In this document: one piece after another, positions 715 to 60,706 of the stretch
Layout: every line of letters starts with the position of its first letter
Position numbering within the stretch: position 1 is the first letter of the stretch
Source: a virus
Length of the DNA: 64,000 bases
Direction: 5' to 3' (one strand)
Virus record (IMG/VR): IMGVR_UViG_3300035454_000441
Position numbers and translations under genes: made by a program
The notes under the pieces: model-generated
Seen by the model: only the letters and a program-made list of their open reading frames with translations
Told to the model about the DNA's origin: nothing
Databases searched by the model: none

Positions 715-884
715 AACAGACCAGCCTTAATGTCTCTCTTTTTCAAGTCACGGGCAATCTCAACGTCACACCAGTGAAACGAATCGGGATCAGCAATTTC
801 GATGACTCTTTTGAGAAAAGCAGTGGCGTTCGGAGAATCGGAGTACTTGTCAAGAGTGCTTTCGATATCGTAGTATTTCGTCAC
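711..884 (-). CDS. Hypothetical protein; probable GTG start downstream of promoter a (the track start lies inside the promoter spacer)
   Basis: RBS AAAGGAGA 5 nt before GTG; the upstream TTG start falls inside the -35/-10 spacer. Confidence 0.35.
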   Translation of the reverse strand: MTKYYDIESTLDKYSDSPNATAFLKRVIEIADPDSFHWCDVEIARDLKKRDIKAGLL

Positions 885-920
885 TGGTTTCTCCTTTGGG
901 TTTGTCTCAATCACAAATAT

Positions 921-949
921 ACTATACAACACCAAACCAGAGAAGTCAA
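921..949 (-). promoter_or_regulatory. Early sigma70-like promoter, cassette copy a (TTGACT-N17-TATAGT)
   Basis: rc of agtcaa(944-949) ... actata(921-926), 17-nt spacer. Confidence 0.6.
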
Positions 950-5616: not shown

Positions 5617-6929
5617 TTCTTTACTCGTTTGAATGGAATGTTGTCGATGGAGTCAGCTTCGTCTTTATCAAACCTACGACCAAGAAAGCGCGGAAGATAG
5701 AGAGACCATTTAGCATCATTCGTCTTGGCTTTAATTCTCTCGTTGTACGCGACTTCAACGATTGACCCTTTCCACTCAGAGAAAGGAATGTCTCGGTCTT
5801 TATCAGAGAGTCCCGAACCAACAGAGACTTCAACTAAACCATCAGAAGAGACACACTCAAGGGAACCGATTTTGCCGGCATACTTACCAGTACCCTCAAG
5901 ATAACCAACCACTTGGAGATCGCAGGTGATGACGCCCTTGTACTTGATTTGCGTCTTAGACCGCTTACCTTCCCAGACGTTTTTCTTGTCCTTGAGGATA
6001 GTGCCCTCTTCGCCACCTTCATACAACTCGGTGAAGTGCTTGTAGGCTTCTCGCTCGTTGTTTACAATCTTCGTGTTAACGATAGAGAAATTATAACGTT
6101 TGTTGGAGCATTTGTCAACCAACAATCTTAGACGATCCTCATAGGGTGTGGCGCAATAACCCGCGTTCCAGTCGGCAATCGGAATGATATCGAAGATGAT
6201 GAAGTGAACCCGTTTAGCGACTTCATAGGGCAGAGTGCCGTGAATGGCTTTGTTGATTAGACCATTTCCCTTCTTACGGTCCATCAGCTTACCATCGCCT
6301 TCAACGACTACCAGTTCCCCATCCAACACATAGTCAGTACCAAAGTCATCAGCAAGACCAGCGTTAAACATATCGTGAAGGTCAAACGGTCGTCCATTCG
6401 AGGAGTGGAGTACAAACGCCCCGTTAATCGGGATTGCCTGACACCTCGACCCATCAACCTTGGTCTGACTGTATGCGGGGAATGTGATATTCTTAATACT
6501 CTTTTCGTCATAAGCAGTCGCCTTCATAACAGGAAACTCGGGAATGAGGTTGGGCCAAATCTCATTGACAGTAGACTCGGCCACACCACACTTCGGATCC
6601 TTAGCAATGATACGCTTGATAAGTTCACCTGTATCTTCACTTGCTATATTGAGGATGGTGTTCAAGTAATTAATTGCGGCAGTACCAGTGACTTGCCGAG
6701 TGGACAAAGCACCCAACATATTCATGGCATCATAATCTGTTAGAGTTGATACCGGATTATACAGATACTTCGGTATCTTTTTGATGTAGAAGTTGGTGAA
6801 CGGATCCAGTGCCAGCTTGAAGAACAGTTTGAGTTCCTCGTTCATACCATATCGACCGAGAATAAGTTTCTTCTCATTACGGCTGGCAGTAGCGGCAAGT
6901 TCATTCAGAATGTCAAGGTTTGTTTTCAT
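5613..6929 (-). CDS. ATP-dependent DNA ligase (T4 gp30-like); start trimmed to MKTNLDILNEL
   Basis: KxDG motif SQTKVDGSRC; N-terminus aligns with T4 ligase MILKILNEIA. Confidence 0.85.
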   Translation of the reverse strand: MKTNLDILNELAATASRNEKKLILGRYGMNEELKLFFKLALDPFTNFYIKKIPKYLYNPVSTLTDYDAMNMLGALSTRQVTGTAAINYLNTILNIASEDTGELIKRIIAKDPKCGVAESTVNEIWPNLIPEFPVMKATAYDEKSIKNITFPAYSQTKVDGSRCQAIPINGAFVLHSSNGRPFDLHDMFNAGLADDFGTDYVLDGELVVVEGDGKLMDRKKGNGLINKAIHGTLPYEVAKRVHFIIFDIIPIADWNAGYCATPYEDRLRLLVDKCSNKRYNFSIVNTKIVNNEREAYKHFTELYEGGEEGTILKDKKNVWEGKRSKTQIKYKGVITCDLQVVGYLEGTGKYAGKIGSLECVSSDGLVEVSVGSGLSDKDRDIPFSEWKGSIVEVAYNERIKAKTNDAKWSLYLPRFLGRRFDKDEADSIDNIPFKRVKK

Positions 6930-7766: not shown

Positions 7767-7976
7767 TTAAGCCACGATGTTGAAGTGGAAGTGGATGCCG
7801 TTCGAGGCAGCATCAGCACCGACGAAAATCGGGAAGCAACGACCCTCTTTCGTCCAAGCAGTGAAGAAACGAACGTGACCCGTCACCTCGAAGTTGAGAG
7901 CCTTAGCAACAGCCTTCAACATATTCGCTTCGTTGGCGTAGGTCTTGGTGGGCGTCACTTCAACATGATTCAACAT
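7767..7976 (-). CDS. Hypothetical protein (69 aa)
   Basis: Follows promoter b and RBS AGGAGG. Confidence 0.45.
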   Translation of the reverse strand: MLNHVEVTPTKTYANEANMLKAVAKALNFEVTGHVRFFTAWTKEGRCFPIFVGADAASNGIHFHFNIVA

Positions 7977-8004
7977 TAGAAAGCCTCCTGGTTAGTGTTT
8001 CTCA

Positions 8005-8033
8005 ATTACAGATACACTATACAAGAGGCTGAG
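8005..8033 (-). promoter_or_regulatory. Early promoter, cassette copy b (TTGACA-N17-TATAGT + GTATCTGTAAT)
   Basis: tgtcaa 8028-8033 / actata 8005-8010. Confidence 0.6.
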
Positions 8034-8063
8034 GTTAATGTCAACAGAAAAAAGAGAGGGGCG

Positions 8064-16002: not shown

Positions 16003-16088
16003 TACTTGCTCACTTTCGCTTTAGCCGGGAGGTAGGAAAGAAGACAGGGAATGAAGAAGCCGAGCAACATCACGATTTCGTATTTCAT
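16003..16088 (-). CDS. Small hydrophobic peptide (28 aa) directly after promoter c; below the ORF-track cutoff
   Basis: RBS AAGGAG + ATG; TAATG overlap with the next gene. Confidence 0.3.
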
Positions 16089-16121
16089 AGAGTCTCCTTG
16101 GTTAGCGTCGATTACAGATAC

Positions 16122-16150
16122 ATCTTACACCAACCAAGAAGTTGTGTCAA
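16122..16150 (-). promoter_or_regulatory. Early promoter, cassette copy c (TTGACA-N17-TAAGAT + GTATCTGTAAT, inverted repeat CTTGGTTGG/CTAACCAAGG)
   Basis: tgtcaa 16145-16150 / atctta 16122-16127. Confidence 0.6.
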
Positions 16151-18687: not shown

Positions 18688-18959
18688 TTCAGAAACTCCT
18701 TGATTTTGTAGTTCCAGACGGTGTATTTGGCAGTCTTGATATTCAAGTTGAAACCGTAGTTGATACGATCATGAGCAGTTTCGTGAATGTAACTGTCAGC
18801 AAGGCCAACTTCGACCAGTTTGTCTAGACGATAGCGAGTTTGGGAAACAGTCAAACCCAAGTGTTTTGCCCAATCGCGAAGAGAAAGCGATTTGCTTTCC
18901 GCATCCTCAAAGAGAAAAACGTTTTCTCGGACGATACTTTCAACAGTAATCTTGGGCAT
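18684..18959 (-). CDS. Putative HTH DNA-binding protein (91 aa)
   Basis: HTH-like segment DWAKHLGLTVSQTRYRLDKL; follows promoter d. Confidence 0.45.
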   Translation of the reverse strand: MPKITVESIVRENVFLFEDAESKSLSLRDWAKHLGLTVSQTRYRLDKLVEVGLADSYIHETAHDRINYGFNLNIKTAKYTVWNYKIKEFLK

Positions 18960-18991
18960 TGTGTCTCCTTGGTTGGTGTCGATTACATATA

Positions 18992-19020
18992 CATCCTACA
19001 CCAACCAAGGAGAGAAGTCA
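18992..19020 (-). promoter_or_regulatory. Early promoter, cassette copy d (TTGACT-N17-TAGGAT, inverted repeat CTCCTTGGTTGGTG/CACCAACCAAGGAG)
   Basis: agtcaa 19015-19020 / atccta 18992-18997. Confidence 0.6.
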
Positions 19021-19027
19021 ACCATTA

Positions 19028-21810: not shown

Positions 21811-22032
21811 TTAGGCTCCGCAGTATTCCGAGAGAAGGAACTTGGCCCGGTTCAGAGTCTTCCGGGCGGCTTCAACATCACCCATCGCCATTTCTTCCTG
21901 AGCATCGCTCAAGAGCGACATAACGACAAACGAAGCCCCGTTATGCTTGAACCCGAAAGTCATCTCAACCGCTTTTGCATAGGCAGTGATATCTTCACAC
22001 CCAAACATCTCAAGCATCGCTTCTTTCGTCAT
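21811..22032 (-). CDS. Hypothetical protein (73 aa)
   Basis: Follows promoter l. Confidence 0.4.
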   Translation of the reverse strand: MTKEAMLEMFGCEDITAYAKAVEMTFGFKHNGASFVVMSLLSDAQEEMAMGDVEAARKTLNRAKFLLSEYCGA

Positions 22033-22071
22033 CTCAGTTCCTTTCGTGGTGGGAGTGTCAACTACAGTTAC

Positions 22072-22100
22072 AATATACAGTAAAGCGTGGTGACTGTCAA
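22072..22100 (-). promoter_or_regulatory. Early promoter, cassette copy l (TTGACA-N17-TATATT); the -35 box lies in the loop of the 22084-22124 hairpin
   Basis: tgtcaa 22095-22100 / aatata 22072-22077. Confidence 0.5.
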
Positions 22101-22130
22101 GAAAAATCTTTCAATCACCACGCTTTTTTG
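22084..22130 (+). terminator. Hairpin AGCGTGGTGA...TCACCACGCT followed by TTTTTTG (plus-sense intrinsic terminator shape; may act bidirectionally or as a promoter-associated stem-loop)
   Basis: 10-bp perfect stem, 21-nt loop, T-run 22124-22129. Confidence 0.4.
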
Positions 22131-23597: not shown

Positions 23598-23960
23598 GAT
23601 ATGTCACCTTTCATAATAAGCTGGCTGGTCTTGGACAGTTTAAAGTGATATCCATCACTTGCGGTCGGATGACCTTCTCAGTAGGAGAGTTGCTGAACCC
23701 AGCCATGGGTTAACGTTCTGAGTGTACTTTCTTTTCCAGTAGTATGAATGGTAGTTAAGTTGCTGTAGACACTCACTTTAGCCAAGATGAAGCTGTTCTG
23801 GATGGTTTATCGATACCGTGTGTTCAGTCATACCGATAGATGGCGTTATTGCCAATTACTTCATTGCCGATAGGTTAGATGTTTCTCTTAGCCATGTCTT
23901 TAAGTAGTAGTAATTGCTGTACCCATCCAAGGTTTATTTGTTGCTCTTCAATACATAGAC

Positions 23961-23989
23961 ACTATAACATCACCATTTTTTCGTGTCAA
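23961..23989 (-). promoter_or_regulatory. Early promoter, cassette copy n (TTGACA-N17-TATAGT), about 360 nt upstream of the vWA gene start
   Basis: tgtcaa 23984-23989 / actata 23961-23966. Confidence 0.5.
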
Positions 23990-25014: not shown

Positions 25015-25295
25015 GGAGACTCCTAAAAGGGTAACCCGTTTTTTTCTGTTTCCAAGACAAAACGGGTAAAATCTCAGTCGCGGTTAAGCGGCAAGGGCAA
25101 AGTCATACTCGCCTTTTATTGCTTTTGTCTGATATACGGCCATGACATTCCGGACTGTCCATCTTCGTACTTGTTACCCAGTCGAAACCTTGGCACCCCC
25201 ATCAACAGCATACTAGCAGAAGCCTCTAATCTCGCCCCAGTGGGCATAACACATGGCCTCAGTGCCCCGATGTGTCCGGGATGATAGTATGCTCT

Positions 25296-25340
25296 TGGTG
25301 GAGGTGGCGGGATCGAACCCGCGTCCTAAGCACCTTTCGG
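25296..25340 (-). other. tRNA 3'-half-like element (T-arm GCGGG-TTCGATC-CCCGC, acceptor 3' strand, CCA) with no matching 5' half
   Basis: Minus strand reads ...gacgcgggttcgatcccgccacctccacca. Confidence 0.45.
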
Positions 25341-25376
25341 TTGACTTCATACAGTCATATTGCTATTTAGTTATTA

Positions 25377-26480: not shown

Positions 26481-27050
26481 TTAGAACCCTTTCACCATTG
26501 GGTACTGATTGAACGCCTTGGCAAGCAACTCAAAATCATCAGTCAGTTCCGGGTTAGCAACTTCAACGTTATTGACGTTGACCCAGACGACCTCGGCCCA
26601 TTTATTGTTGAGGTCTTTCAAACCATCAACAGCCACACCGAGAGTCTTCACAAGCGAGTAACCGAAGCGGCGTTCACCTTCCCAGAAGACAACACCCTTG
26701 GTACCTTTCTTGACCTTACGACCCGCGACGACCACGACTTCGGAGCCCTTGCGAACGCGGTGGGCGCGTTCAAGGTCTTCCGATTTCAGTTTGCGAAAAG
26801 CGAGTTCACGTTTATGCGCGGCATACTTCGCCTTGACTTCATCCGTCGCGTCAATCTTGCACGAAACATCGCCGCAACCGAAGCGAGTGCTGTAGACAAT
26901 ACGCGACTCAGGCGCGTTTTTCTCTTTGTTCCAGACAATCACAAGTTCGTCCCAGTCATCATACCACGACTGGTGACCAGTCTCAAGAACAGCGCCCTCA
27001 AACTCAACAATCTTTTCGCCAGTTTCGTGATTGGTGTAAATGACGGGCAT
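26481..27050 (-). CDS. Hypothetical protein (189 aa; start at MPVIYTNH downstream of promoter e)
   Basis: RBS AAGGAG in the cassette; the track start falls inside the promoter. Confidence 0.5.
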   Translation of the reverse strand: MPVIYTNHETGEKIVEFEGAVLETGHQSWYDDWDELVIVWNKEKNAPESRIVYSTRFGCGDVSCKIDATDEVKAKYAAHKRELAFRKLKSEDLERAHRVRKGSEVVVVAGRKVKKGTKGVVFWEGERRFGYSLVKTLGVAVDGLKDLNNKWAEVVWVNVNNVEVANPELTDDFELLAKAFNQYPMVKGF

Positions 27051-27085
27051 TGAGTCTCTCCTTGGTTGGCGTCGATTACAGATAC

Positions 27086-27114
27086 ATCTTACACCAACCA
27101 AGGAGACTTGTCAA
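27086..27114 (-). promoter_or_regulatory. Early promoter, cassette copy e (TTGACA-N17-TAAGAT + GTATCTGTAAT; inverted repeat TCCTTGGTTGG/CCAACCAAGGA)
   Basis: tgtcaa 27109-27114 / atctta 27086-27091. Confidence 0.6.
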
Positions 27115-27124
27115 CAACTATTTT

Positions 27125-28549
27125 TCACAAAATGGGTTTATTTGCGTTCTCCCGAATCTTCTCAAAGTTAGTCAAGGCAACAAACGGCTCATACAGTTTC
27201 TTCGTCATAGTGTAGACCAAGTTCAGGATAATCTTGTCTTCCCAATTCTGGTCATCCAGACGAACGGTTTTTGCCTTGCCTTCCTCGTCCTCCACGACAG
27301 TGAGGCGACCACGTTTGCTTTCTTTGCCCGGTGCTTCCTTGAAAACATCAATCCATTTACCATTGACAAGCAGGGCGCAACACTTCATGGCGAATCCGTA
27401 GGTGTCGCGGTTAACGTGTTGGAGCAGGGCACCACCCATCCCGAATGCTACGTTGTCAGCACTGAAACCTGCCCACTTGAGAGTAGCTAGGATTTCGTTG
27501 ATGCTGGCTTTGTTGATGCCGTCTCCTTGAATAACGCGAACATAAGGAGGAAGCACTTTGTAACCCTTGCTGTTCCGAGTGGTACCAAACTTCTCTGCAA
27601 GGATTTCAACACAACGGCGTACGGTCGGAGCGGGGTCCCCCGAGTCCGGACGAATAACCAGAGTACCACCAACTGCGCCGAGGGCTTCAACATCTGCCTT
27701 CAACTCGGTACCCCAGAGTTCACAAGCCTTGAAGATATCGTAGCTGTCCGAAACAACAGCCACAAGCTTGCCAGGACCGCCGTATTGTTTCAGCATATTG
27801 CGGTATGCTTCAACTTCGTTGTCTTTACCCCAACTGGTGATGGTGCTATGTTCAGCCGCAGGAATACTGAACCCTGCCATCTCTGCACCGTAGTAGTGAT
27901 TGGCATACTGAACACCCTCAACAGTGTCCGAGCCGAGAAAGTTTACAAGGTGAGCCGCACCGCCGATACCAGCAGTTTCACCCGAAGAGCAACCACGACC
28001 ACCGAAGTCATGGAGTTTGAATGCGACTTGCTCTTGAACGTCACTGGTCCGCTCAAGGAAGTCTTTGATGACTTTCTTGCAGTCATAACTTACAGTGGCG
28101 ACCGAAGACGGGTACCAGATGGCGCGAAGTAGAGCCGTTTCGAGGAAGTTCACGATCCAAAAGCACACAGGATCAGTACAACATATCGTAAGTAAGCAAT
28201 TACGATTTTTAATAACAGTTCCTTCAGGTAAAGCCTTGATAGTGACAGGCATATATCCTTTATACTCGGTTAGTATATACTCAAATCCTTGTTTATTGAA
28301 AGGAACCCCATGTGCTTTACAGAACAGTTCAGCCTCTTCAATATCAGCTTGAGTAATCGGGGTGAGTAGATAGTCCTTGATGAACATCTGTAATCCAAAG
28401 AACACAAGATGATCTCCTCCTCTCGCTTCAATATACGATTGCATCCCCTCGGCTCCCGGAGGATATTGTCCTTGATGTTCAGTGTTATTGATACCGATTG
28501 AATGCGAGAATTTGTATGAATCGGTGGATAGTAGGATATTTCTTTTCAT
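27125..28549 (-). CDS. nadV: Nicotinamide phosphoribosyltransferase (NAMPT/NadV)
   Basis: 474 aa; overall NAMPT pattern (..GGGLLQ..DTVFG..); typical phage NAD+ salvage gene. Confidence 0.8.
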   Translation of the reverse strand: MKRNILLSTDSYKFSHSIGINNTEHQGQYPPGAEGMQSYIEARGGDHLVFFGLQMFIKDYLLTPITQADIEEAELFCKAHGVPFNKQGFEYILTEYKGYMPVTIKALPEGTVIKNRNCLLTICCTDPVCFWIVNFLETALLRAIWYPSSVATVSYDCKKVIKDFLERTSDVQEQVAFKLHDFGGRGCSSGETAGIGGAAHLVNFLGSDTVEGVQYANHYYGAEMAGFSIPAAEHSTITSWGKDNEVEAYRNMLKQYGGPGKLVAVVSDSYDIFKACELWGTELKADVEALGAVGGTLVIRPDSGDPAPTVRRCVEILAEKFGTTRNSKGYKVLPPYVRVIQGDGINKASINEILATLKWAGFSADNVAFGMGGALLQHVNRDTYGFAMKCCALLVNGKWIDVFKEAPGKESKRGRLTVVEDEEGKAKTVRLDDQNWEDKIILNLVYTMTKKLYEPFVALTNFEKIRENANKPIL

Positions 28550-28592
28550 AGTAAGTCTCCCTTACTTTGGTGATGGTGAGTTGTCTATCAAC

Positions 28593-29123
28593 TCACTTAT
28601 TGAATTGGTGTTTATAAGCCCGTTCTAACCAGATTTTCCATTGCTCTAAACTATGTTCTTTCTTGGAGTAGTTACAAGCAGAACAACATGGTACAACGTT
28701 ATCTAGTGTGTAACCCTTGTTATTATCTACCCTATCAATACCGTTATACAGCAACGTATCATAGACCATTCTCATTTCTGTGTTCGGTACTGTACCACAA
28801 TAGTAGCATGACTGTTGCGTAATGTCAACCACATTTTGTAGTGTAAGTTCGAATAATATACCTCTCTTCTTGGCACCGCTTACGTAACGTCTGTACAACT
28901 TTCGTTTGAGACCCATTTGGTCGGGGAATCGACGATTTGGTCTAGGTGGTGAACAATCTTTACACGCCAGGCGTATTGAGTTACGTAAATCCGTAATATG
29001 TGCGTATCTAACACCACCACACTCACACTGACATACCCACTTCTTACGTTCATTATCAAAGTATGTCAGTGTGAGTTTTCCATATTTCTCGCCGCTTGTT
29101 GCTGAGTTATTTGTTCTTGCCAT
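28593..29123 (-). CDS. HNH homing endonuclease
   Basis: C-terminal HNH box DRVDNNKGYTLDNVVPCCSACNYSKK. Confidence 0.75.
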   Translation of the reverse strand: MARTNNSATSGEKYGKLTLTYFDNERKKWVCQCECGGVRYAHITDLRNSIRLACKDCSPPRPNRRFPDQMGLKRKLYRRYVSGAKKRGILFELTLQNVVDITQQSCYYCGTVPNTEMRMVYDTLLYNGIDRVDNNKGYTLDNVVPCCSACNYSKKEHSLEQWKIWLERAYKHQFNK

Positions 29124-29191
29124 TTTGTGTCCGTTTCCAAATAAGTATTTTTATGATTACACTTATTTAGTAACAGTCACTTTTCTAGGCC

Positions 29192-29317
29192 TCACTCCTT
29201 TTCGGTAATCAGGCTCAACTGCCCACAAGCGGCGCCGGCGGCAACTTCGGCTTCTGTAGCGATAGCAACAGCGAAGTCAAAACCGGCTTCTTTAAGTTCC
29301 TGAGCGATTTTCTCCAT
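29192..29317 (-). CDS. Detached C-terminal fragment of the RlmN/Cfr-like enzyme (carries the conserved ...AACGQL Cys motif)
   Basis: MEKIAQELKEAGFDFAVAI...AAGAACGQLS resembles the RlmN C-terminus; strong RBS AAGGAGA. Confidence 0.5.
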   Translation of the reverse strand: MEKIAQELKEAGFDFAVAIATEAEVAAGAACGQLSLITEKE

Positions 29318-29327
29318 GGTATTCTCC

Positions 29328-30131
29328 TTAGATAATGTTAGTTGTGGTAATGATGCCGGCGCCCAGCCCATTCTGGTCGCTAATCTCATTACGATTGATT
29401 GGTGATAGCTTGATGAAGAAATACTTTGGGTCAAAATACCTCTTGAGTTTGTCAATGTCAAAGTCCGCTTCATCGACCAGTGTAAGATTCACAGTGGTCT
29501 TCAACTTGCTTTTGGTGCGAATCTGACCAAGTTCTTCAATGGTCATCAGATTGTTCACTGGAATAAGTTCACGCCTGCGGTCTTCATCTAGTGAATGAAG
29601 ACTAATCTGGAGCGTGATGTTGTCCTTAATCCAAGAGAAGTCCGACCCCCTAACGCCGATAGTGCTGATATAGTGATGAAACAGAATATCATTTCTGTGT
29701 TGCTGGAACATATCAATAGCTTTCCTGACTTCATCAATATTCAGAAAAGGCTCACCCATGCGAGTATAGTTAATCTTGAGTTCCTTGGGATGTTCGAAGC
29801 CAAGAGAATCCAAGAATTCCTCGTTCTTCTCAAGCATAACAAACTTGACTTGGTCTGTAATCTCCTTAGCAGTAAGATTGCGCCAGCCCTTCATCTGCCC
29901 AGTGGCGCAGAACTTACATCCAACAGGACAACCGGACATAGTGGACACACCAATCATCCAGCGTTCTGCTCTGGAGCCGATATTACCATCCCGCAACGCA
30001 TTGGTGCCGTTGACACACTCCTTGGTATAGTAAGGCAGAAATGTGTCCGTAGTCTCAATCAGTCGCCCGTCTTCCAGTTCAAGACAGTAGACGGATCCGT
30101 TTGTGAAATGTCGGCTTCGTAGTTCTTTCAT
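29328..30131 (-). CDS. RlmN/Cfr-family radical SAM RNA methyltransferase (N-terminal and core part; frameshifted relative to the C-terminal fragment)
   Basis: CPVGCKFCATGQ (RlmN GCxxxCxFCxTG), RMGEPFLN, LQISLHSLDEDRRRELIPVN. Confidence 0.65.
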   Translation of the reverse strand: MKELRSRHFTNGSVYCLELEDGRLIETTDTFLPYYTKECVNGTNALRDGNIGSRAERWMIGVSTMSGCPVGCKFCATGQMKGWRNLTAKEITDQVKFVMLEKNEEFLDSLGFEHPKELKINYTRMGEPFLNIDEVRKAIDMFQQHRNDILFHHYISTIGVRGSDFSWIKDNITLQISLHSLDEDRRRELIPVNNLMTIEELGQIRTKSKLKTTVNLTLVDEADFDIDKLKRYFDPKYFFIKLSPINRNEISDQNGLGAGIITTTNII

Positions 30132-30133
30132 CG

Positions 30134-31165
30134 TTAAATTCCTAGCAAGTCGGTAATGATATCGTAGTGATCCTCAAAAAGACGGTCGGGCTCCAGTTCC
30201 GAGATGGGCAGCCAGAAAGCCTTCTCCGCATCATCGGCGCCTTTGACTCGCGGCAGGTCACCACAGTTCGGTAGTTCAATGAGGAATGCGTTAGTCACAG
30301 TACGTCCGCGAAGACTACGTTCAGGAGCATCATACACCTTCTGGCGCTTGATACAACCCCTCAGGACGGGCATGGGAACCTTAATCTTAGTCTCTTCACG
30401 AAGTTCCCGAAGCATACCATCAATAAGCGTTTCCTCTTGATTGAGAAAGCCACCCGGCAAGGCATACAGTCCTTTACCCGGTTCTGCCCGGCGCTTCACC
30501 AGCAGAATATGACCAGACTGAATGACAACAGCATCCGTGGTCAGAAATGTCACGGGATAAGGAGCAACAGCCCATGACTCTTTATATCCCTTGATGTAGA
30601 AATACTCCTGAACCAGTTGCTTGAACTCCGGTGTTTGAGTAAAGCCTTGGAGATACTGGAACACGGTCGGTGGTACAAACTTCTCAAAGTAATCAAACTT
30701 GAAGTATCTATCACGCAAGGCGGTGGCGTGAAGATGGCTCAGTTCTTCATCAAAGCCCGCGGGCGAGATGAAATGCCACTGCGGGAACATATCGATGTAC
30801 CAACTGGTGTAGTCTTCCTTGTTACCCGTGATAGCGATACTCCCAAAGTCCGGATCGCCGTTGTCGGAAAGGATGACTTGGTCCACCACGTTCTGTACAT
30901 GCATGGCCCATTTCTGGTCATTGTAGGTGAAGTCGTTGAGATAACCATACAGAACGCGGCTATCGTTATCAGTGACGCCTCGAATCATAGACACACGTTC
31001 ACTAGCAGTGAACGGGTTCTTGATTGTACGAGGACGATTAGCCGTGCCGATTAAGACAATGACCTTCTCGGAGTACTTCAAGGCGTTTTCTAGAATAGCT
31101 TGATGGTTCTTGTGGAAGGGCTGAAATCGCCCGATGAATACGCAATACTTGTGTTTTTTAAGCAT
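30134..31165 (-). CDS. nadM: Bifunctional NMN adenylyltransferase / Nudix hydrolase (NadM-Nudix, NatV-like)
   Basis: GRFQPFHKNH nucleotidyltransferase motif; Nudix box GGFLNQEETLIDGMLRELREETKI. Confidence 0.85.
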   Translation of the reverse strand: MLKKHKYCVFIGRFQPFHKNHQAILENALKYSEKVIVLIGTANRPRTIKNPFTASERVSMIRGVTDNDSRVLYGYLNDFTYNDQKWAMHVQNVVDQVILSDNGDPDFGSIAITGNKEDYTSWYIDMFPQWHFISPAGFDEELSHLHATALRDRYFKFDYFEKFVPPTVFQYLQGFTQTPEFKQLVQEYFYIKGYKESWAVAPYPVTFLTTDAVVIQSGHILLVKRRAEPGKGLYALPGGFLNQEETLIDGMLRELREETKIKVPMPVLRGCIKRQKVYDAPERSLRGRTVTNAFLIELPNCGDLPRVKGADDAEKAFWLPISELEPDRLFEDHYDIITDLLGI

Positions 31166-31235
31166 AATGGACTCCCCATTAAGATATGATAGTGAGGCGT
31201 CTTTCGCCTCACACTTCTATTTAGTTTAAAATGAA

Positions 31236-31526
31236 TTACTCGTCCAAGAACGGATCTATAACACCAGTCATTCGGCGCAATTGATATGTACACTCATTCG
31301 TGGTTTCTTTGCCGAGAGACACGGATTTACCATAGCACCTCGTTGTTTCTTTGTCGTGGCCGATAACACAAAATCCAGCACCGATGATATCATCTTTGGT
31401 CTTGCCAATATTTCGGGTCATTTGATCATGAGATATAAAATCTGGAAACACAACTAGGGTGTCCAGCCGACCAACACCCGTATTCAAATCACGAACGAAA
31501 ATGTATTTCAATTCACTCACAGTCAT
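31236..31526 (-). CDS. Hypothetical protein (96 aa)
   Basis: ORF track. Confidence 0.4.
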   Translation of the reverse strand: MTVSELKYIFVRDLNTGVGRLDTLVVFPDFISHDQMTRNIGKTKDDIIGAGFCVIGHDKETTRCYGKSVSLGKETTNECTYQLRRMTGVIDPFLDE

Positions 31527-31862: not shown

Positions 31863-31996
31863 TTCTTGGCAGCCTCAACGATTTTGTTAAACGTCTTGTT
31901 AGAAACGGTACGAACACCACAGACGCGGCAGGGAAAGGTTTCAAGAACCTTGGTACCACAACAGAGACATTTGACTTTCTTGAGGTCAGCACTCAT
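31862..31996 (-). CDS. Small zinc-ribbon protein (45 aa); below the ORF-track cutoff
   Basis: CLCCG...CRVCG; ATGA/TAATG overlaps with neighbours. Confidence 0.3.
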
Positions 31997-32121
31997 TAGC
32001 GAGCCGCTTTCTCTTTAAGCAGGGCGATGTTGGAATTGACTTCTTTCGTCGCTTTTTGGGCGGGGACTTTGGTGACTTTACCACCACGCTTCAAGAACTC
32101 TTCAACGCTTTCGATTTTCAT
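31996..32121 (-). CDS. Small Lys-rich protein (41 aa) directly after promoter f
   Basis: ATG 25 nt downstream of the cassette. Confidence 0.3.
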   Translation of the reverse strand: MKIESVEEFLKRGGKVTKVPAQKATKEVNSNIALLKEKAAR

Positions 32122-32160
32122 TTTGTGGTCTCCTTTGGGGTTAGCGTCAATCACAAATAC

Positions 32161-32189
32161 ACTATACACCAGAAGGAGACCACTGTCAA
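32161..32189 (-). promoter_or_regulatory. Early promoter, cassette copy f (TTGACA-N17-TATAGT)
   Basis: tgtcaa 32184-32189 / actata 32161-32166. Confidence 0.6.
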
Positions 32190-34963: not shown

Positions 34964-35165
34964 GCTTTTCACTCCAAGGTTTCGGGTCATAGCTACATGC
35001 CATACAGGGTCGAATACCATCCTCTTTAGCGTCTTGCTCACTCATAGTAGTAGAAACAAGAGGCTTACCGTTCACCGTACCGTTCAGACAGGAGCAGTCT
35101 GAATCTTTATGGTACTTTTTACTCATTCGACCAGTGTAAGGTGAAACAGACACAATGACTTTCAT
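34950..35165 (-). CDS. Hypothetical Cys-containing protein (71 aa) after promoter m
   Basis: ATG is 40 nt downstream of the -10 box. Confidence 0.4.
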   Translation of the reverse strand: MKVIVSVSPYTGRMSKKYHKDSDCSCLNGTVNGKPLVSTTMSEQDAKEDGIRPCMACSYDPKPWSEKHGQN

Positions 35166-35204
35166 AGTTATTCCTTTAATATCTCATTTCTTCCTAACAC
35201 AGTT

Positions 35205-35233
35205 ACTATACTAGGTCCACAATAGGTTGTCAA
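35205..35233 (-). promoter_or_regulatory. Early promoter, cassette copy m (TTGACA-N17-TATAGT)
   Basis: tgtcaa 35228-35233 / actata 35205-35210. Confidence 0.55.
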
Positions 35234-35258: not shown

Positions 35259-35283
35259 AAAAGCCCGCTTTAGGCGGGCTTCG
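35259..35283 (-). terminator. Rho-independent terminator (stem AAGCCCGC/GCGGGCTT, loop TTTAG, U-run)
   Basis: 8-bp GC stem followed by TTTTCTTTT on the minus strand; overlaps the stop of 35270..35542. Confidence 0.6.
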
Positions 35284-42483: not shown

Positions 42484-42883
42484 ATTTCACCATCTCATAG
42501 GCTTTGTCCCATTTGCCGATATTGATGGCGATGTAATGGGAACAGTGAAAGTAGTCGGACTGGATATCAGACTTGTCGAAGTAGCGCGGACCATGCATCG
42601 CCTTGTTGACTTCGTGAAGAAACTTAGCAGACTTGCCAGACCAACTGGAGTCGATGTGATACTGATTGACTTGCTCATGCCCGCGGAAGGGGATGGGAGC
42701 GTGACCGTTGTAGTGGTCAGTGGCTTTGTAATCTTTGGCGAAGTCAAGCTTCCCGCTCTTGACCGTGAGAGTCAAACACGTATGGTTGTGAACAGAAAGC
42801 GAACCCTTCACGCCGTACTTTTTCAGGATGGGTTTGACAACAGCGGCGATTTCGGCTTTGTGATCTTGACTCATGAAGGCCAT
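42482..42883 (-). CDS. Hypothetical protein (start at MAFMSQDHK; RBS AAGGAG in cassette g)
   Basis: The track start lies 4 nt from the predicted +1. Confidence 0.45.
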   Translation of the reverse strand: MAFMSQDHKAEIAAVVKPILKKYGVKGSLSVHNHTCLTLTVKSGKLDFAKDYKATDHYNGHAPIPFRGHEQVNQYHIDSSWSGKSAKFLHEVNKAMHGPRYFDKSDIQSDYFHCSHYIAINIGKWDKAYEMVK

Positions 42884-42884
42884 T

Positions 42885-43235
42885 TTAGTCTCCTTGGTTT
42901 GGGTTAGCGTCAATTACAGATACACTATACACCATGCGGAACCAGAAGTCAACAAAATTATTCAACAGACTTCCAAGCGGCATCCCTAGCAGACATAGCA
43001 AGCTTGCCTTTGTTCTTCCCTTTAGAGAAGAACCGATCGAAGAACCGACCCCAAACGATGATTTTGCTTTCGGGGTACAGGGGTGAAAGTCAACAAACAC
43101 CATGTACTCGGAAGGGGTAACCCGATGTACTTCGAAGTACATTCCATCCCGATTTCCACGGGTTTCAAGAACCCATTCTTCGGGCACTTCAATCATATCA
43201 ACGTTCCATTTGTTCTTTTTGTACTTGAGTTCCAT
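42885..43235 (-). CDS. Hypothetical protein (116 aa); its low-complexity C-terminus reads through promoter g
   Basis: Follows cassette h. Confidence 0.4.
   Translation of the reverse strand: MELKYKKNKWNVDMIEVPEEWVLETRGNRDGMYFEVHRVTPSEYMVFVDFHPCTPKAKSSFGVGSSIGSSLKGRTKASLLCLLGMPLGSLLNNFVDFWFRMVYSVSVIDANPNQGD
42924..42952 (-). promoter_or_regulatory. Early promoter, cassette copy g (TTGACT-N17-TATAGT + GTATCTGTAAT)
   Basis: agtcaa 42947-42952 / actata 42924-42929. Confidence 0.6.
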
Positions 43236-43266
43236 TCTCTTCTCTCTTTCTCTTGATTACAGATAC

Positions 43267-43295
43267 ATCCTACACCAACCAAGGAGAGAAGTCAA
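43267..43295 (-). promoter_or_regulatory. Early promoter, cassette copy h (TTGACT-N17-TAGGAT)
   Basis: agtcaa 43290-43295 / atccta 43267-43272. Confidence 0.6.
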
Positions 43296-44689: not shown

Positions 44690-44946
44690 CTCCGGGTAGA
44701 GTCGGTGTCGGCGAAACTCACACCGTTATCAGTGTAGTAGATGCCGGCTTGGCCGCTGGCGATTTCGTCCCACTCAAGCCAGCGAAAACCGCGATAGTTG
44801 CCAGTGACATGGAGCGTCTCCTCGAGGAGAAGATAAAGAGCGATTCGCGTCTCCTTCTCGCCCGCCTCGGTCAACTTGAGGCGTTCATTGACGTAAGTTT
44901 TAAGCATCTCAACTTCAACAGTCTTGCGAGTCGCGACTTTACCCAT
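44677..44946 (-). CDS. Hypothetical protein (start at MGKVATRK after cassette i)
   Basis: RBS AAGGAG 8 nt upstream. Confidence 0.4.
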   Translation of the reverse strand: MGKVATRKTVEVEMLKTYVNERLKLTEAGEKETRIALYLLLEETLHVTGNYRGFRWLEWDEIASGQAGIYYTDNGVSFADTDSTRRCYF

Positions 44947-44991
44947 AACGAAAAGACTCCTTGGAAAGTGGTATCTCTTAACTACAGATAC

Positions 44992-45020
44992 ACTATACAA
45001 GGAGTCTTTGGTGTTGTCAA
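44992..45020 (-). promoter_or_regulatory. Early promoter, cassette copy i (TTGACA-N17-TATAGT)
   Basis: tgtcaa 45015-45020 / actata 44992-44997. Confidence 0.6.
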
Positions 45021-54310: not shown

Positions 54311-54530
54311 AGAGATCCCAACCTTTATGCGAAGGACAGGCGTGAGTGCTTTCACAGTAAGGCCACCAGATGGCGCGAGAAATGGCTTCCTCTCTCAAGT
54401 CATCGTAGCGGTCGACCAGTTCGTATTTGCGGTTCAAAGCAACGTTGTAGCCACCAGAGTTGATGGAATTTTTCGTCTTGTTCAGCCAGTGAATAACTTG
54501 GGCATTCGTCATACTGGAAAGTTGTTTCAT
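54303..54530 (-). CDS. Hypothetical protein (75 aa) after cassette j
   Basis: RBS GAGGAG. Confidence 0.45.
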   Translation of the reverse strand: MKQLSSMTNAQVIHWLNKTKNSINSGGYNVALNRKYELVDRYDDLREEAISRAIWWPYCESTHACPSHKGWDLYA

Positions 54531-54558
54531 AATTTCTCCTCTCGTTAGCTACAGAAAC

Positions 54559-54587
54559 ACTATACACTAACGAGAGGAGCAAGTCAA
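54559..54587 (-). promoter_or_regulatory. Early promoter, cassette copy j (TTGACT-N17-TATAGT)
   Basis: agtcaa 54582-54587 / actata 54559-54564. Confidence 0.6.
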
Positions 54588-54590: not shown

Positions 54591-55793
54591 CTATTTTTTC
54601 AGAGATTTGTAGTAAGAAGTCATCTGGCCCAGAACTTCGGCCCTCTTGTCACCAGCACTCTTGACGCGGGTGGCATCAACCTTAAACGATTTCAGCATCA
54701 GCAGTTTGGTGACGATTTTAGCATCTTCAACACTGAACGGATGGTCATGACCAGCCACACGAACCAGGTCTTTCAGCGTATCCAGTCGAGTCTCATAAGC
54801 CAGACGGGCCAGCTTGCGCGGGCTCAGTTTGTCCAGTATCCGAAACCGCATATGCAGTCTAGCCGCAACGGGAACGAAATTGTTCACGTGGGCAGAGAAC
54901 CGATGGTCAGCCAGAAACGCCTCAGCGATTTCAGCAGACCGACGTTCATGCTCATAGTGATGCGGCAGAACATCTTCCGGAGTCTCGCCCTTCCCAACAT
55001 CATGGAACAGGACAGCCATGAAGATATGAAACTTCTCTTCGGCATCCTTAGCACGACGAACAGCGTCCATGGTGTGTTCGAACGCCGTCTTCCCGTGATG
55101 GTGTTCATGAGGACCAGCAGTCACTTTCGCCAGCTTCGCAACAGGCGGGAACAGTACTTCAAGCGCACCAGTCTCAAGCATCAGTTCAAAGTAGCGAACC
55201 AGTTGGTCACCCGTGGTGAACTGCTTGTATGCTTTCTCCAGTTCCTTCACGATACGTTCCTTGGTGATAGCACCAAGGTCGGGAACAGACACTTTCATCA
55301 GTTCAAGGGTCTCGGCTTCAATCTCAAAACCGAACTTGGCGGCGAAGCGGAAACCTCGAAGAATGCGGACTGGATCTTCCGAGAAGGCTTTCTTGAACAC
55401 TGTCACCAGTTTCTTCTCTTTGATATGCTCGCCGCCATTGAACGGGTCAATCAGACGCCGATTGGTGATTTTCATCGCCATAGAGTTGATGGTGAAGTCA
55501 CGGCGGGCAAGGTCTTCCTCGATATCAACACCAACCGCAGTCAGTTCGAAGTCGTGATAACCACTACCAGTCGAAGCTTCCTGGCGAGTCAGAGCGACCT
55601 CGTTGCTTTCGATGATGTAAATGGGAAAACGTTCACCGACAGTCTTGAGATTGAAGTGAGCCTCAAACTCTTCAACTGTGGCTTCAACCACATAGTCAGC
55701 ATCGTCGGGGGTCAGACCCATGAGAGTGTCACGGACGAAACCACCGACAACGAAAGACTTTTCAGCGAAAGGTGAATTGAGCAGGGATTTCAT
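54591..55793 (-). CDS. cca: tRNA nucleotidyltransferase (CCA-adding enzyme) with an HD domain
   Basis: GGFVRD, DDAD; HD domain ...LFHDVGK. Confidence 0.8.
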   Translation of the reverse strand: MKSLLNSPFAEKSFVVGGFVRDTLMGLTPDDADYVVEATVEEFEAHFNLKTVGERFPIYIIESNEVALTRQEASTGSGYHDFELTAVGVDIEEDLARRDFTINSMAMKITNRRLIDPFNGGEHIKEKKLVTVFKKAFSEDPVRILRGFRFAAKFGFEIEAETLELMKVSVPDLGAITKERIVKELEKAYKQFTTGDQLVRYFELMLETGALEVLFPPVAKLAKVTAGPHEHHHGKTAFEHTMDAVRRAKDAEEKFHIFMAVLFHDVGKGETPEDVLPHHYEHERRSAEIAEAFLADHRFSAHVNNFVPVAARLHMRFRILDKLSPRKLARLAYETRLDTLKDLVRVAGHDHPFSVEDAKIVTKLLMLKSFKVDATRVKSAGDKRAEVLGQMTSYYKSLKK

Positions 55794-55822
55794 TTTTAAC
55801 CTTTCTCGTTAGGTACAGATAC

Positions 55823-55851
55823 ACTATACACTAGTGGTGGAGAGAAGTCAA
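55823..55851 (-). promoter_or_regulatory. Early promoter, cassette copy k (TTGACT-N17-TATAGT + GTATCTGTA)
   Basis: agtcaa 55846-55851 / actata 55823-55828. Confidence 0.6.
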
Positions 55852-56133: not shown

Positions 56134-56208
56134 TGGTACCCCCTAGTGGAATTGAACCACTTTCTTCGCTTTGTAAGAGCGACATAATGCCCATTATACG
56201 AAGGGGGC
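56134..56208 (-). tRNA. tRNA-Val (anticodon UAC)
   Basis: Acceptor gccccct/agggggt, anticodon stem tcgct/agcga, loop CTTACAA, T-loop TTCAATT, CCA. Confidence 0.65.
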
Positions 56209-56214
56209 TTAAAA

Positions 56215-56292
56215 TGGTCAGGCGGGTGGGAGTCGAACCCACATTGTCCGGGTCACAGCCGAACCGATTTATTCCTTTAATCTTACCACCTG
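56215..56292 (-). tRNA. tRNA-His (anticodon GUG)
   Basis: Acceptor caggtgg/ccgcctg, anticodon loop CTGTGAC, T-arm GTGGG-TTCGACT-CCCAC, CCA. Confidence 0.6.
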
Positions 56293-56452
56293 ATGAAACG
56301 GTAACCGTAGCTTATTTCCAGGTCACTACTGACAAGGTCAAGCGAACACACCCAACAGAGGATGGGCCCTACCTCGTTGCTGTGGTCATCTAGTACACTG
56401 GGGCTATGCTGGAAAGTATTCCCCAATCTCGTAAGGTATCACCACACACACG

Positions 56453-56965
56453 TTACCAAATTCCGTATTCTACAAGCAAGTCATAGGCATTCATATTCTG
56501 AGCCTTAATCTGGAGAAACTCCATGATTGTAGGCTGAGTTGGTCTCTTCTTGAGGTACATCTTAGCCTCAGAACAGGTCATGTCTGCCTTTGCTGAGTTA
56601 CACTCGGAACACGCGGTAGCAGTGTTTGTCCAAGTGTTTCCACCACCCTTTGACTTTGGAAGAACATGGTCAATTGTTGGCTTCTCAACATACTTGCCAC
56701 AGTACTGACAAATATATCCGTCACGAATGAAGACGTTACGCTTGTTCCACTTGACAGCACGACCATAGAACTTGCGAACTGCCTTGATTAGCTGAATGAC
56801 CAATGGCTTGAAATACTTCTCATTCAACTTCTCGCCTGTTTCCTTGAGCGCAACAGCGGAGCCGTTAGCTATCTTAATCATAGCCTTCTTAACCGTTGTA
56901 AAACCCATGAAGGTCATATCATAGTTGAGTACAAGTACATTCTTCTTTGTCTTCTGCTTTGCCAT
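56453..56965 (-). CDS. HNH homing endonuclease
   Basis: HVLPKSKGGGNTWTNTATACSECNSAK. Confidence 0.75.
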   Translation of the reverse strand: MAKQKTKKNVLVLNYDMTFMGFTTVKKAMIKIANGSAVALKETGEKLNEKYFKPLVIQLIKAVRKFYGRAVKWNKRNVFIRDGYICQYCGKYVEKPTIDHVLPKSKGGGNTWTNTATACSECNSAKADMTCSEAKMYLKKRPTQPTIMEFLQIKAQNMNAYDLLVEYGIW

Positions 56966-57012
56966 AAGTCACCATAGTTTAGAATACAATTGAATATAGA
57001 CTATAAAATATA

Positions 57013-57699
57013 CTACTTCAACCTTCTGCCTTTTCGCCATCCATCTGGAATTGTTTCCCCAATCTTTAACTTTTTGTTATCGATTTCGTTTGTAATCCAA
57101 AATGAACCATATTGCGAATTGAGTTTACCCGAGTGTTTGCCCATAGCAGATTCACTCATTTTCTTTTTTGTTTCCTCTGTGTGTTTTTTACCCAAAAAGC
57201 TTTTGCGATTAACAAGGACTTCTTTATTGTTGTTCCAATACTCTTTCATAGCAAGAAGACCTTTTAATCTCCCGACATTTTTCCCATCAATGATACGTTT
57301 TCGTGTCGCTTCGTCTAATTCTAAAAATCGTTCTTGATTGCTAAACGGTGAAACGAGTTTTTGGTAGTTATCATCATATCTTTTATTTTTATCTGAACAA
57401 CAACCCGTGTTAACATGATCCCAACCACCTTCCCCACCCACTTTGAGATTGTAACATTCACCTGATTCAAGTAAATCAACAGTGACTAGTTCCTTCTCTT
57501 TAGTGAATGCTTCCTCAGGTGTACCAAAGATGAATAGAACTTCTTTAGTGAAATGTTCTATGCCATACTTTTCTATGGCTCTTTTCAGTAACTTACCCGA
57601 ACCCACGTAATCATCATACGGATTAGTTGTTTTATGAACACCGATATAATAACGTTCATTAACTTTGTTTGTTGTTTTATATACGGTATAAACGTACAT
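57013..57699 (-). CDS. GIY-YIG homing endonuclease (Seg-like), paralog of 59582..60295
   Basis: YVYTVYKTTNKVNERYYIGVHKT... Confidence 0.8.
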   Translation of the reverse strand: MYVYTVYKTTNKVNERYYIGVHKTTNPYDDYVGSGKLLKRAIEKYGIEHFTKEVLFIFGTPEEAFTKEKELVTVDLLESGECYNLKVGGEGGWDHVNTGCCSDKNKRYDDNYQKLVSPFSNQERFLELDEATRKRIIDGKNVGRLKGLLAMKEYWNNNKEVLVNRKSFLGKKHTEETKKKMSESAMGKHSGKLNSQYGSFWITNEIDNKKLKIGETIPDGWRKGRRLK

Positions 57700-57770
57700 A
57701 CTTTAGAGAGTCCTTTCGCCCACGGAACTTCACTTCTATTTAGTGAAGTTCAACTCTCTAAAGTATGTCA
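57700..57770 (-). promoter_or_regulatory. Nested inverted repeats immediately 5' of the seg-like start codon (possible translational control hairpin)
   Basis: ctttagagagt...actctctaaag enclosing gaacttcac...gtgaagttc. Confidence 0.4.
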
Positions 57771-57774
57771 AAAG

Positions 57775-57861
57775 CGGAAGAGGGGTGGATTTGAACCCCC
57801 ATCGGTTTTGAGACCTACACTGACTTTCGAGGTCAGCCGCTTACCGTTAGCGTACTCTTCC
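57775..57861 (-). tRNA. tRNA-Ser (anticodon CGA), CCA not encoded
   Basis: Acceptor ggaagag/ctcttcc, anticodon stem ctgac/gtcag, loop CTCGAAA, long variable arm. Confidence 0.55.
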
Positions 57862-58206: not shown

Positions 58207-58211
58207 TTAAA

Positions 58212-58652: not shown

Positions 58653-58691
58653 AGTTGTTACTCCTTTTGGTGTTAGTGATATATTTAGTTT

Positions 58692-58940: not shown

Positions 58941-58945
58941 GAAAC

Positions 58946-59461: not shown

Positions 59462-59466
59462 TCAAA

Positions 59467-60705: not shown

Positions 60706-60706
60706 A

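Follow-up and report, generated by a model that had tools for sequence, protein, structure and literature searches.

How does a large lytic phage, with hundreds of co-oriented genes and few terminators, set the dose and timing of single early genes amid pervasive read-through? The 64,000-nt stretch of viral DNA analyzed here in full (IMG/VR record IMGVR_UViG_3300035454_000441; hereafter the window) raises this question through a family of 14 short, putative early-promoter cassettes, in half of which the spacer between the −35 and −10 boxes is complementary to the Shine–Dalgarno (SD) region of the gene that follows. Two partial answers are known from T4-type phages: promoter-early stem-loop (PeSL) cassettes, which combine terminator and promoter and act on transcription, and single-locus hairpins that mask a ribosome-binding site (RBS) and delay late genes. 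The cassette family suggests a third, merged solution, in which the promoter would itself carry the masking arm, and translation would thus be tied to the choice of promoter at many loci.

A profile built from the obvious copies of the cassette returned exactly 14 members in the window at E ≤ 4e-4, with the next match at E = 0.15. These are the same 14 minus-strand sites that an earlier note on this DNA had listed as a repeat family; its coordinates were exact for 12 of them and off by 1 nt in one case (the true position is 18993-19021) and by 11 nt in another (truly 8016-8044). We name each cassette by the coordinate at which its −35 box starts (see the table). All 14 are on the minus strand and intergenic between co-oriented genes, and in 13 of them the start codon lies 57-74 nt past the −35 box. 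Aligned, the cassettes start with an A/T-rich lead-in that often reads AAAATAGTTG, and several copies have the stop codon of the previous gene within it; there follow TTGAC(A/T), a spacer of 17 nt with GTG as its usual end, and a −10 box that reads TATAGT or, in the subfamily defined by CCTTGGTTGG, TAAGAT or TAGGAT. In most copies the leader is GTATCTGTAAT(C/T)GAC, then AAGGAG, then the start codon. The block GTATCTGTAAT, described in the note as conserved and transcribed, is present with at most two mismatches in 10 of the 14 cassettes but is exact in only five, and its GTATCT part is probably upstream of the +1 position. The pattern TTGACW-N17-TANNNT occurs 23 times in the window, in every case on the minus strand, against 2.0 occurrences predicted from shuffled sequences; nine further consensus-type matches and a few perfect TTGACA/TATAAT sites fall outside the 14-member family. 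The boxes, their excess and the identity of the phage (see below) agree with the note's assignment and support the view that the cassettes are sigma-70-type early promoters of a T4-type phage, their activity as promoters being predicted from the sequence.

Spacer and SD region are complementary in seven of the 14 cassettes (54587, 45020, 32189, 27114, 19021, 16150 and 8044). The note had described a palindrome that brackets the −10 box, with CCTTGGTTGG in at least six spacers and its reverse complement CCAACCAAGG at the RBS. In this literal form the palindrome is rarer, since we count three exact copies and one near-copy of CCTTGGTTGG and find CCAACCAAGG exact in two leaders, but the general complementarity is stronger than had been noted: the seven hairpin cassettes carry five unrelated arm sequences (CTCCTCTCGTTAG/CTAACGAGAGGAG, AAAGACTCCTTG/CAAGGAGTCTTT, GTGGTCTCCTT/AAGGAGACCAC, AGCCTCTTG/CCAGGAGGCT and CTCCTTGGTTGGTG/CGCCAACCAAGGAG). 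Duplex energies of the seven range from −15 to −30 kcal/mol (p ≤ 0.002 against shuffled spacers) and the RNA fold of the whole region has z scores of −3.8 to −7.0, with none of 200 shuffles equalling the native sequence. Their stems comprise 12-19 pairs and enclose loops of 16-34 nt. In all seven the SD is covered by the 3′ arm, whose end is −3 to +5 nt from the start codon. In the predicted minimum-energy fold of read-through RNA, 9-11 of the 11 nucleotides of the SD region are paired in these seven, and the leaders made from the cassettes' own promoters are predicted to fold with 0 to −6 kcal/mol only. The whole-region fold of the remaining seven cassettes is not significantly structured.

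The complementarity is specific to each cassette. When spacers were scored against their own and against foreign leaders, the observed sum was reached in two of 20,000 permutations, and in none of 20,000 for a non-redundant set of 11 from which the redundant CCTTGGTTGG copies had been removed. Anti-SD 4-mers are found in 8/14 spacers, against a background of 12% (p = 5e-5). With the geometry held the same, pairing of −14 kcal/mol or stronger is seen in eight of the 14 cassettes versus four of 122 other genes in the window, and the four include two Seg endonuclease genes that have RBS hairpins of their own (described below). As an external control we used other T4-type contigs, 2.0 Mb in total, which contain 38 sigma-70-type promoter/SD/ORF (open reading frame) arrangements. 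Pairing occurs in two of these, both on a sister contig of the window (IMGVR_UViG_3300035557_000039, here L010/L326); the other 36 show none and average about −5 kcal/mol.

We lean toward the interpretation that the cassette hairpin is an RNA structure that masks the RBS and that its 5′ arm, the promoter spacer, lies upstream of the cassette's own transcription start site (TSS). Each cassette would then be a self-contained early unit made up of a promoter of the host sigma-70 type, a short leader with a strong AAGGAG SD, and the gene that opens a small module, and in half of the copies the 17-nt spacer would double as an anti-SD arm. RNA polymerase initiating further upstream would transcribe both arms, and this read-through RNA is predicted to fold into the 12-19-pair hairpin (−23 to −34 kcal/mol), burying the SD and, in two cassettes, the start codon as well, such that the first gene would go untranslated. 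A transcript from the cassette's own promoter would start past the 5′ arm, and its almost unstructured leader would be translated. In this way translation of the first gene would be tied to initiation at its own early promoter, and expression would be confined to the period in which early promoters fire and be independent of upstream context. The flanking conserved blocks, AAAATAGTTGTTGAC and GTATCTGTAATYGAC, might also serve as homology patches for cassette exchange.

Read-through is to be expected because the genes are co-oriented, convincing terminators are few and the previous stop codon is near the −35 box. In the seven hairpin cassettes this stop codon is 3-61 nt from the −35 box (3-19 nt in six, and 3 nt in cassette 54587), and a terminator scan found no terminator between the upstream gene and the cassette; the hairpin-less cassettes 35233 and 55851 have a terminator-like hairpin upstream in place of an SD hairpin. 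We also considered melting of the hairpin by a ribosome that terminates upstream (translational coupling) and think it unlikely, as the 5′ arm is at least 11-12 nt past the stop codon, probably just outside the ribosome's expected reach. The first genes behind the cassettes encode 28-189 amino acids; none scores above the Pfam threshold, none has a transposase domain, and those of two cassettes have no homologues among 5.8 billion proteins. Small ORFan genes such as these are typical of early host-takeover functions, and a plausible benefit of the hairpin would be to restrict them to the early period or to insulate them from upstream context.

A more far-reaching proposal, which we put forward tentatively and with distinctly less confidence than the masking itself, is that the cassette is a portable, self-insulating driver of early genes. 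A module would be translated from its own promoter only, and passing polymerases would both occlude that promoter and make silent RNA, leaving a short immediate-early pulse. If this were so, modules could be shuffled between genome positions and between phages with dose and timing unchanged, the family would be the first case in which the principle of T4 e and of IS10 fold-back is found in many copies and with an early promoter, and PeSL-type modular shuffling would be linked to translational insulation. With a length of about 65 nt, a modular build and predicted sigma-70 compatibility, the cassettes could provide an insulating part for synthetic operons; they would also be a concrete case of regulatory-cassette recombination that breaks and re-forms an RNA structure.

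Promoters inside RBS-sequestering hairpins are known from T4 genes e, soc, 49, I-TevI, I-TevII, I-TevIII and segB and from Aeh1 mobE, where short transcripts are translatable and long ones silent, and for T4 gene e the effect of the hairpin is 100-fold (PMC3014915, PMC2988022). The present cassettes are predicted to have the same logic and geometry as these cases: the 3′ arm contains the SD and in some instances the AUG too, and transcripts from the own promoter lack the 5′ arm. They differ in that the T4-type cases are single loci with a late (or middle) internal promoter and delayed translation, whereas the promoter here is of the early sigma-70 type, TTGAC(A/T)-N17-TATAGT, the 5′ arm is the −35/−10 spacer, the device occurs at least seven times in 64 kb within a repeat family, and the predicted outcome is early-only or context-independent expression rather than delay. 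Fold-back inhibition in IS10, IS50 and related insertion sequences reportedly shields translation of the transposase from outside transcripts (Davis, Simons & Kleckner 1985; Mahillon & Chandler 1998). The likeness is one of mechanism only: a portable element masks a translation start in outside RNA, and RNA from its own promoter lacks the 5′ arm. In contrast to these transposons, which have a transposase and terminal inverted repeats, the present cassettes have neither and would drive ordinary phage early genes.

Hairpins around translation starts are also found at two SegE-like GIY-YIG/NUMOD3 genes located in the tRNA cluster of the window. Their SD and ATG are buried in the outer stem of nested hairpins (−50 and −44 kcal/mol), the inner loop of which, CACTAAATA(A/G)AAGTG, carries the heptamer CTAAATA. 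There are nine copies of CTAAATA on the minus strand of the window and none on the plus strand; it resembles the late-promoter motif of marine T4-like phages and, judged from its sequence, is likely a late promoter. By analogy, the SegE-like genes have the classical segB/I-TevI arrangement, and promoter-in-hairpin control would be something that this phage uses.

PeSL cassettes are known from the T4-type phages RB49/phi1, T4/PST and KVP40/nt-1 (Arbiol et al. 2010, PMC2839356; Comeau et al. 2014, PMC4122927). Their stems are compact (G-run/C-run or A3-4G3/C3T3-4), terminate transcription, and are found ahead of the promoter, in the interval from −35 to −10, or across the −10 box itself (PMC2839356, PMC4122927). 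PeSLs are preferentially associated with ORFans or hyperplastic regions, and recombination between them gives rise to indels, replacements or mini-circles, the last of which have been shown for RB49. The resemblance to PeSLs that had been suggested for the window holds for the kind of phage and the layout: the cassettes are multi-copy and intergenic in a T4-type phage, with an A/T-rich lead-in, near-consensus sigma-70 −35 and −10 boxes, a 17-nt spacer, and SD and start codon at the 3′ end. They also stand beside small ORFans. As is often the case in RB49, the 5′ arm of the stem is inside the spacer, and mosaic cassettes with breakpoints between the −10 box and the SD suggest exchange between copies. 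It does not hold for the stem-loop, which is not of the compact, terminator-like kind; the terminator scan flags none of the cassette hairpins. In the cassettes of the window the 3′ arm is shifted ~20 nt downstream onto the SD, the long loops hold the −10 box and the conserved GTATCTGTAATYGAC block, the stems lack a U-run, the arm sequences vary, and a stem is present in half of the copies only. The proposal that an arm containing the RBS is a distinctive variant was borne out, since published PeSL stems have the positions given above and those that we inspected in 50 kb of RB49 leave the SD outside; stems in RB49 such as GGGAGTA-TAAAAT-TACTCCC hug the −10 box, and the SD is 15-25 nt beyond. 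On the sister contig we observed an RB49-style arrangement, TTGCAC-N17-TATAAT with an 18-20-bp hairpin (CACACTAACACTGGTGATG...), where the −10 box forms the loop and the SD is outside the stem. In the best-supported reading, which is based on prediction and concerns one phage lineage, the promoter spacer would supply one arm of an RBS-masking hairpin, and the cassette would join two known T4-type devices.

Two cassettes are chimeric. In cassette 43295 the CCTTGGTTGG promoter half is joined, after GTAATC, to an unrelated leader. In L455, one of the independent relatives found via homologues of the first gene behind cassette 27114 (the others being L456/L457), the orthologue of cassette 27114 keeps the flanks AAAATAGTTGTTGCC and GTAATCGACACCAACCAAGGAG and has a central 30 nt from a TATAGT-type cassette. 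The latter chimera is at the edge of a ~4.4-kb indel: L455 (2566-2975) lacks the NAD-salvage block of the window, which comprises NMNAT-Nudix, a radical-SAM protein, a 176-amino-acid ORF and NAMPT, and one edge of the indel is inside cassette 27114. These mosaics (n = 2) are suggestive of PeSL-like shuffling between cassettes. Because their breakpoints fall within conserved blocks, it is these blocks, rather than the palindrome, that are the probable sites of exchange, and the idea of a recombination hotspot has modest support as exchange at the conserved blocks.

The independent relatives also show how the hairpin has been conserved; sequences of relatives occur in ERZ27315067, JGI 3300002220 and SRR33638116. 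L456/L457 are syntenic with the window (NAMPT, cassette, gene), and the first gene is 65% identical at the amino acid level; the L456 orthologue of cassette 27114 is 87% identical, compared with 46% for the third positions of codons in the gene next to it, and its stem is a perfect 17 bp. L455 has an orthologue of cassette 32189 (first gene 54% identical) and, in the register common to both, one pair differs by a compensatory change from U-A to C-G, with two pairs private to each lineage and 13/15 pairs in each. Within the CCTTGGTTGG subfamily the 15-bp core is paired in all six sequences; three of its pairs vary, each on one side only and each to G-U, which fits an RNA of the sense strand. 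In cassette 16150, three of the 14 pairs of the stem are G-U, and the fold energy is −23.4 kcal/mol for the sense strand versus −10.5 kcal/mol for the antisense strand.

Among other explanations, the one that deserves most attention, although we regard it as unlikely, is that the cassettes are PeSLs in the published sense, the stem-loop being a terminator or attenuator, the cassettes mainly recombination sites and the overlap with the SD incidental. The T4-type phage with its published PeSL layout (PMC2839356, PMC4122927), the RB49 stems that likewise have a 5′ arm in the spacer, the RB49-style stem around the −10 box of the sister contig and the chimeras 43295 and L455, the latter at an indel edge, are all consistent with this explanation, but a terminator has no need of a 3′ arm on the SD, where the arm is found in all five independent designs, and the 16-34-nt loops, the lack of a U-run past the 3′ arm and the negative terminator scan argue against termination; recombination, for its part, requires conserved blocks and not complementary arms specific to each copy. 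We consider it more doubtful still that the hairpins are processing sites of the RNase III type, at which long early transcripts would be cut into module mRNAs or the SD of read-through RNA would be destroyed. Early mRNAs of T7 are generally known to be processed in this manner, and the near-perfect stems of 12-19 pairs would form in polycistronic RNA only, yet most of them are shorter than the roughly two helical turns generally regarded as typical for RNase III, a conserved internal loop or cleavage motif is absent, and both the length and the register of the stem vary.

A role at the level of DNA appears quite improbable to us, whether as an operator at the −10 box for a dimeric repressor or anti-sigma-like factor, as had also been proposed for the palindrome, or as a cruciform or hairpin target of recombination enzymes. 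The inverted repeat does flank the −10 box, the antisense fold energies are close to the sense energies in most copies, and T4-type phages are generally known to encode structure-specific nucleases. Against this, the arm sequences are wholly unlike one another between cassettes and offer no common recognition sequence, and because complementarity alone is conserved a sequence-specific operator is unlikely. In addition, the position of the arm in the spacer and the length of the loop both vary, the variation to G-U amounts to a mismatch in DNA (A-C on the other strand), loops of this size are generally held to disfavor cruciform extrusion, and the constant location of the 3′ arm on the SD would go unexplained. 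Least probable of all, and in our view largely refuted by the permutation, external control and conservation results, is that the complementarity has no selected function and was inherited from one palindromic ancestor or reflects composition (C/T-rich spacers against purine-rich SDs). Common descent does account for the commonest stem, the CCTTGGTTGG type, in 3-4 copies in the window and two on the sister contig, and half of the cassettes do without a hairpin; but there are five unrelated arm designs, the permutation result sharpens once redundant copies are removed, composition-preserving shuffles do not reproduce the pairing, the 36 control promoters elsewhere lack it, and the L456 cassette is conserved far beyond neutral sites.

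Several points weigh against masking of the RBS, the interpretation toward which we lean. A significant hairpin is present in only 7/14 cassettes, and its link with tight packing against the upstream gene is a trend only (7/7 versus 3/7), the tightly packed cassettes 43295, 42952 and 949 having weak pairing only. The hairpin of cassette 27114 has disappeared from its orthologue in L455 (p = 0.28) and is therefore dispensable there. Between orthologues, a clean compensatory change on both sides is seen in one pair only, and two-sided covariation is absent within the six sequences of the fixed-register CCTTGGTTGG subfamily. The fold energies of sense and antisense strands differ little on average (−19.9 versus −18.1 kcal/mol), so a hairpin in DNA is energetically possible. 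Masking of the first gene would leave the downstream genes of a module translatable unless these are translationally coupled, and promoter activity, TSS position, read-through and the effect on translation all enter the scheme as predictions.

The window (45% G+C, with genes densely packed on the minus strand) is part of JGI contig Ga0394029_24239 (69,459 bp, sample 3300035557), and Logan run SRR36367033 contains a 100% identical sequence. Its gp61-type primase matches 2,430 T4-like records, with a best identity of 40% to Methylophilales phage Melnitz and Pelagibacter phage Mosig, and its gene content includes SegE-like GIY-YIG, PhoH, ThyX, RNR, NAMPT, NMNAT-Nudix, RtcB, a CCA-adding enzyme and 18 tRNAs. 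Judged by the primase matches, the SegE-like GIY-YIG genes and the homologues of gp44 (clamp-loader) and gp46 encoded on the sister contig, the phage is T4-type. A megablast search of GenBank phages with 4 kb of the window gave no match, and a distant blastn search with the window gave matches confined to NAMPT genes; by the megablast result, the phage is new and lacks a close sequenced relative.

Scans with the cassette pattern returned 12 loci in IMG/VR, of which the sister contig L010/L326 was the sole genuine one, 118 loci in JGI/ENA metagenomes, none of them genuine, and 120 loci in GTDB genomes, none of which had a second copy; when the pattern was made specific to the leader, the sister contig was once more the sole match, and no Rfam family covers the cassettes. 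The sister contig, the sole other contig reached via the cassette pattern, has four clear copies and one marginal copy, two of which carry the CCTTGGTTGG hairpin (−30 and −37 kcal/mol). We rejected it as an independent phage: it has JGI sample 3300035557 in common with the window contig and is therefore most likely another piece of the same genome, hence non-independent evidence. Relatives sought via RNR and gp46 (160 loci, 2 Mb, with genes in common with the window) contain no cassette and almost no TTGACW-N17-TANNNT sites, and served solely as a negative control. More distant relatives with RNR, primase and ThyX in common have neither the cassette nor sigma-70-consensus sites, which suggests that the device is lineage-specific. 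Searches for homologues of the first genes of cassettes 54587 and 45020 gave self-matches only, and thus no orthologous cassettes for those two stem designs.

Table. Positions of the 14 cassettes, each named by the start of its −35 box, and of other features of the window and related contigs. z, z score of the whole-region RNA fold.
Feature	Position (strand)	Boxes and start codon	5′ arm (spacer)	3′ arm	Fold	Remarks
Cassette 27114	27048..27114 (−)	−35 TTGACA 27109-27114; −10 TAAGAT 27086-27091; ATG 27048-27050	27092-27106 TCTCCTTGGTTGGTG	27057-27071 CGCCAACCAAGGAGA	minimum free energy −33.9; z −6.0	copy at the site given in the note; preceded by TTTTGTGAAAAA
Cassette 19021	18957..19021 (−)	−10 TAGGAT	18999-19013 TCTCCTTGGTTGGTG	18964-18978 CACCAACCAAGGAGA	z −5.35	
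Cassette 16150	16086..16150 (−)		16128-16141 CTTCTTGGTTGGTG	16094-16107 CGCTAACCAAGGAG	z −4.18	
Cassette 32189	32119..32189 (−)		32167-32183 GTGGTCTCCTTCTGGTG	32125-32140 CCCCAAAGGAGACCAC	z −3.79	arm sequence unlike other cassettes
Cassette 45020	44944..45020 (−)		44998-45009 AAAGACTCCTTG	44952-44963 CAAGGAGTCTTT	z −4.18	loop 34 nt
Cassette 54587	54528..54587 (−)		54566-54579 CTCCTCTCGTTAGT	54536-54549 GCTAACGAGAGGAG	z −7.04	
Cassette 8044	7974..8044 (−)		8022-8040; spacer AGCCTCTTG	7974-7990; CCAGGAGGCT	z −5.46	−35 region also paired with start-codon region
Cassette 43295	43233..43295 (−)				z −0.27	chimera; promoter half identical to CCTTGGTTGG type, leader diverges past GTAATC; residual TTCTCTC/GAGAGAA pairing weak (duplex p 0.02)
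Cassette 42952	42881..42952 (−)					conserved leader GTAATTGACGCTAACC...AAGGAG; no significant hairpin
Cassette 55851	55791..55851 (−)					no significant spacer-SD hairpin; terminator-like hairpin and T-run directly upstream
Cassette 35233	35163..35233 (−)					no hairpin; strong intrinsic-terminator-like site just upstream (35260-35282)
Cassette 22100	22030..22100 (−)					no SD pairing; 12-bp inverted repeat AAAGCGTGGTGA...TCACCACGCTTT across −35 (22101-22128 with 22082-22094)
Cassette 23989	23961..23989 (−)					weakest family member
Cassette 949	882..949 (−)	GTG start codon				pairing moderate, non-significant
SegE-like gene	59582-60400 (−)					
SegE-like gene	57013-57800 (−)					
NAD-salvage block	27125-31526					
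Stretch downstream of cassette 23989	23598-23960 (−)					
First gene of cassette 32189	31996-32121 (−)					41 amino acids
Palindrome TTTCACAAATTTGTGAAA	45046-45063 (−)					
Permuted tmRNA gene	25084-25356 (−)					
tRNA cluster	56134-63588 (−)					
TET-associated glycosyltransferase	60707-61615 (−)					
RB49-style promoter, sister contig L326	~6020-6075 (+)					
TCACTATAATGA/TTCACTATAGTGAA motifs, sister contig L326	12057-12130					
TCACTATAATGA/TTCACTATAGTGAA motifs, relative L327	2458-2530					palindromic

A few other features of the cassettes and their surroundings were recorded. A perfect 18-bp palindrome, TTTCACAAATTTGTGAAA, is located ~25 nt upstream of the −35 box of cassette 45020, and the sequence that precedes cassette 27114, TTTTGTGAAAAA, is a related half-site. 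Cassette 23989 is followed by ~360 nt without an ORF of at least 50 amino acids and without a match in Rfam, and this stretch may be a promoter-driven non-coding RNA. Behind cassette 32189, the first gene encodes 41 amino acids, and this product matches the SutA RNA-polymerase-binding domain below threshold (E = 1.7e-5; 24.5 bits, cut-off 29.3). The product has an N-terminal VEEFLKRGGKVT motif that the L455 orthologue shares, and may be an early peptide that binds RNA polymerase.

Elsewhere, the window carries a permuted (two-piece) tmRNA gene (Rfam RF04321, 104.6 bits; ARAGORN tag peptide GEYDFALAA), part of which is 93% conserved in L455 and which is a hint that the host belongs to one of the groups with permuted tmRNA. 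Small ORFs and the two Seg-like genes are scattered among the 18 tRNA genes of the cluster. That the phage has hypermodified DNA bases is suggested by a domain match to a TET-associated glycosyltransferase (PF20691, E = 1.3e-44). Finally, repeated TCACTATAATGA/TTCACTATAGTGAA motifs upstream of genes on the sister contig and on the relative L327 may represent a promoter or operator of another class.

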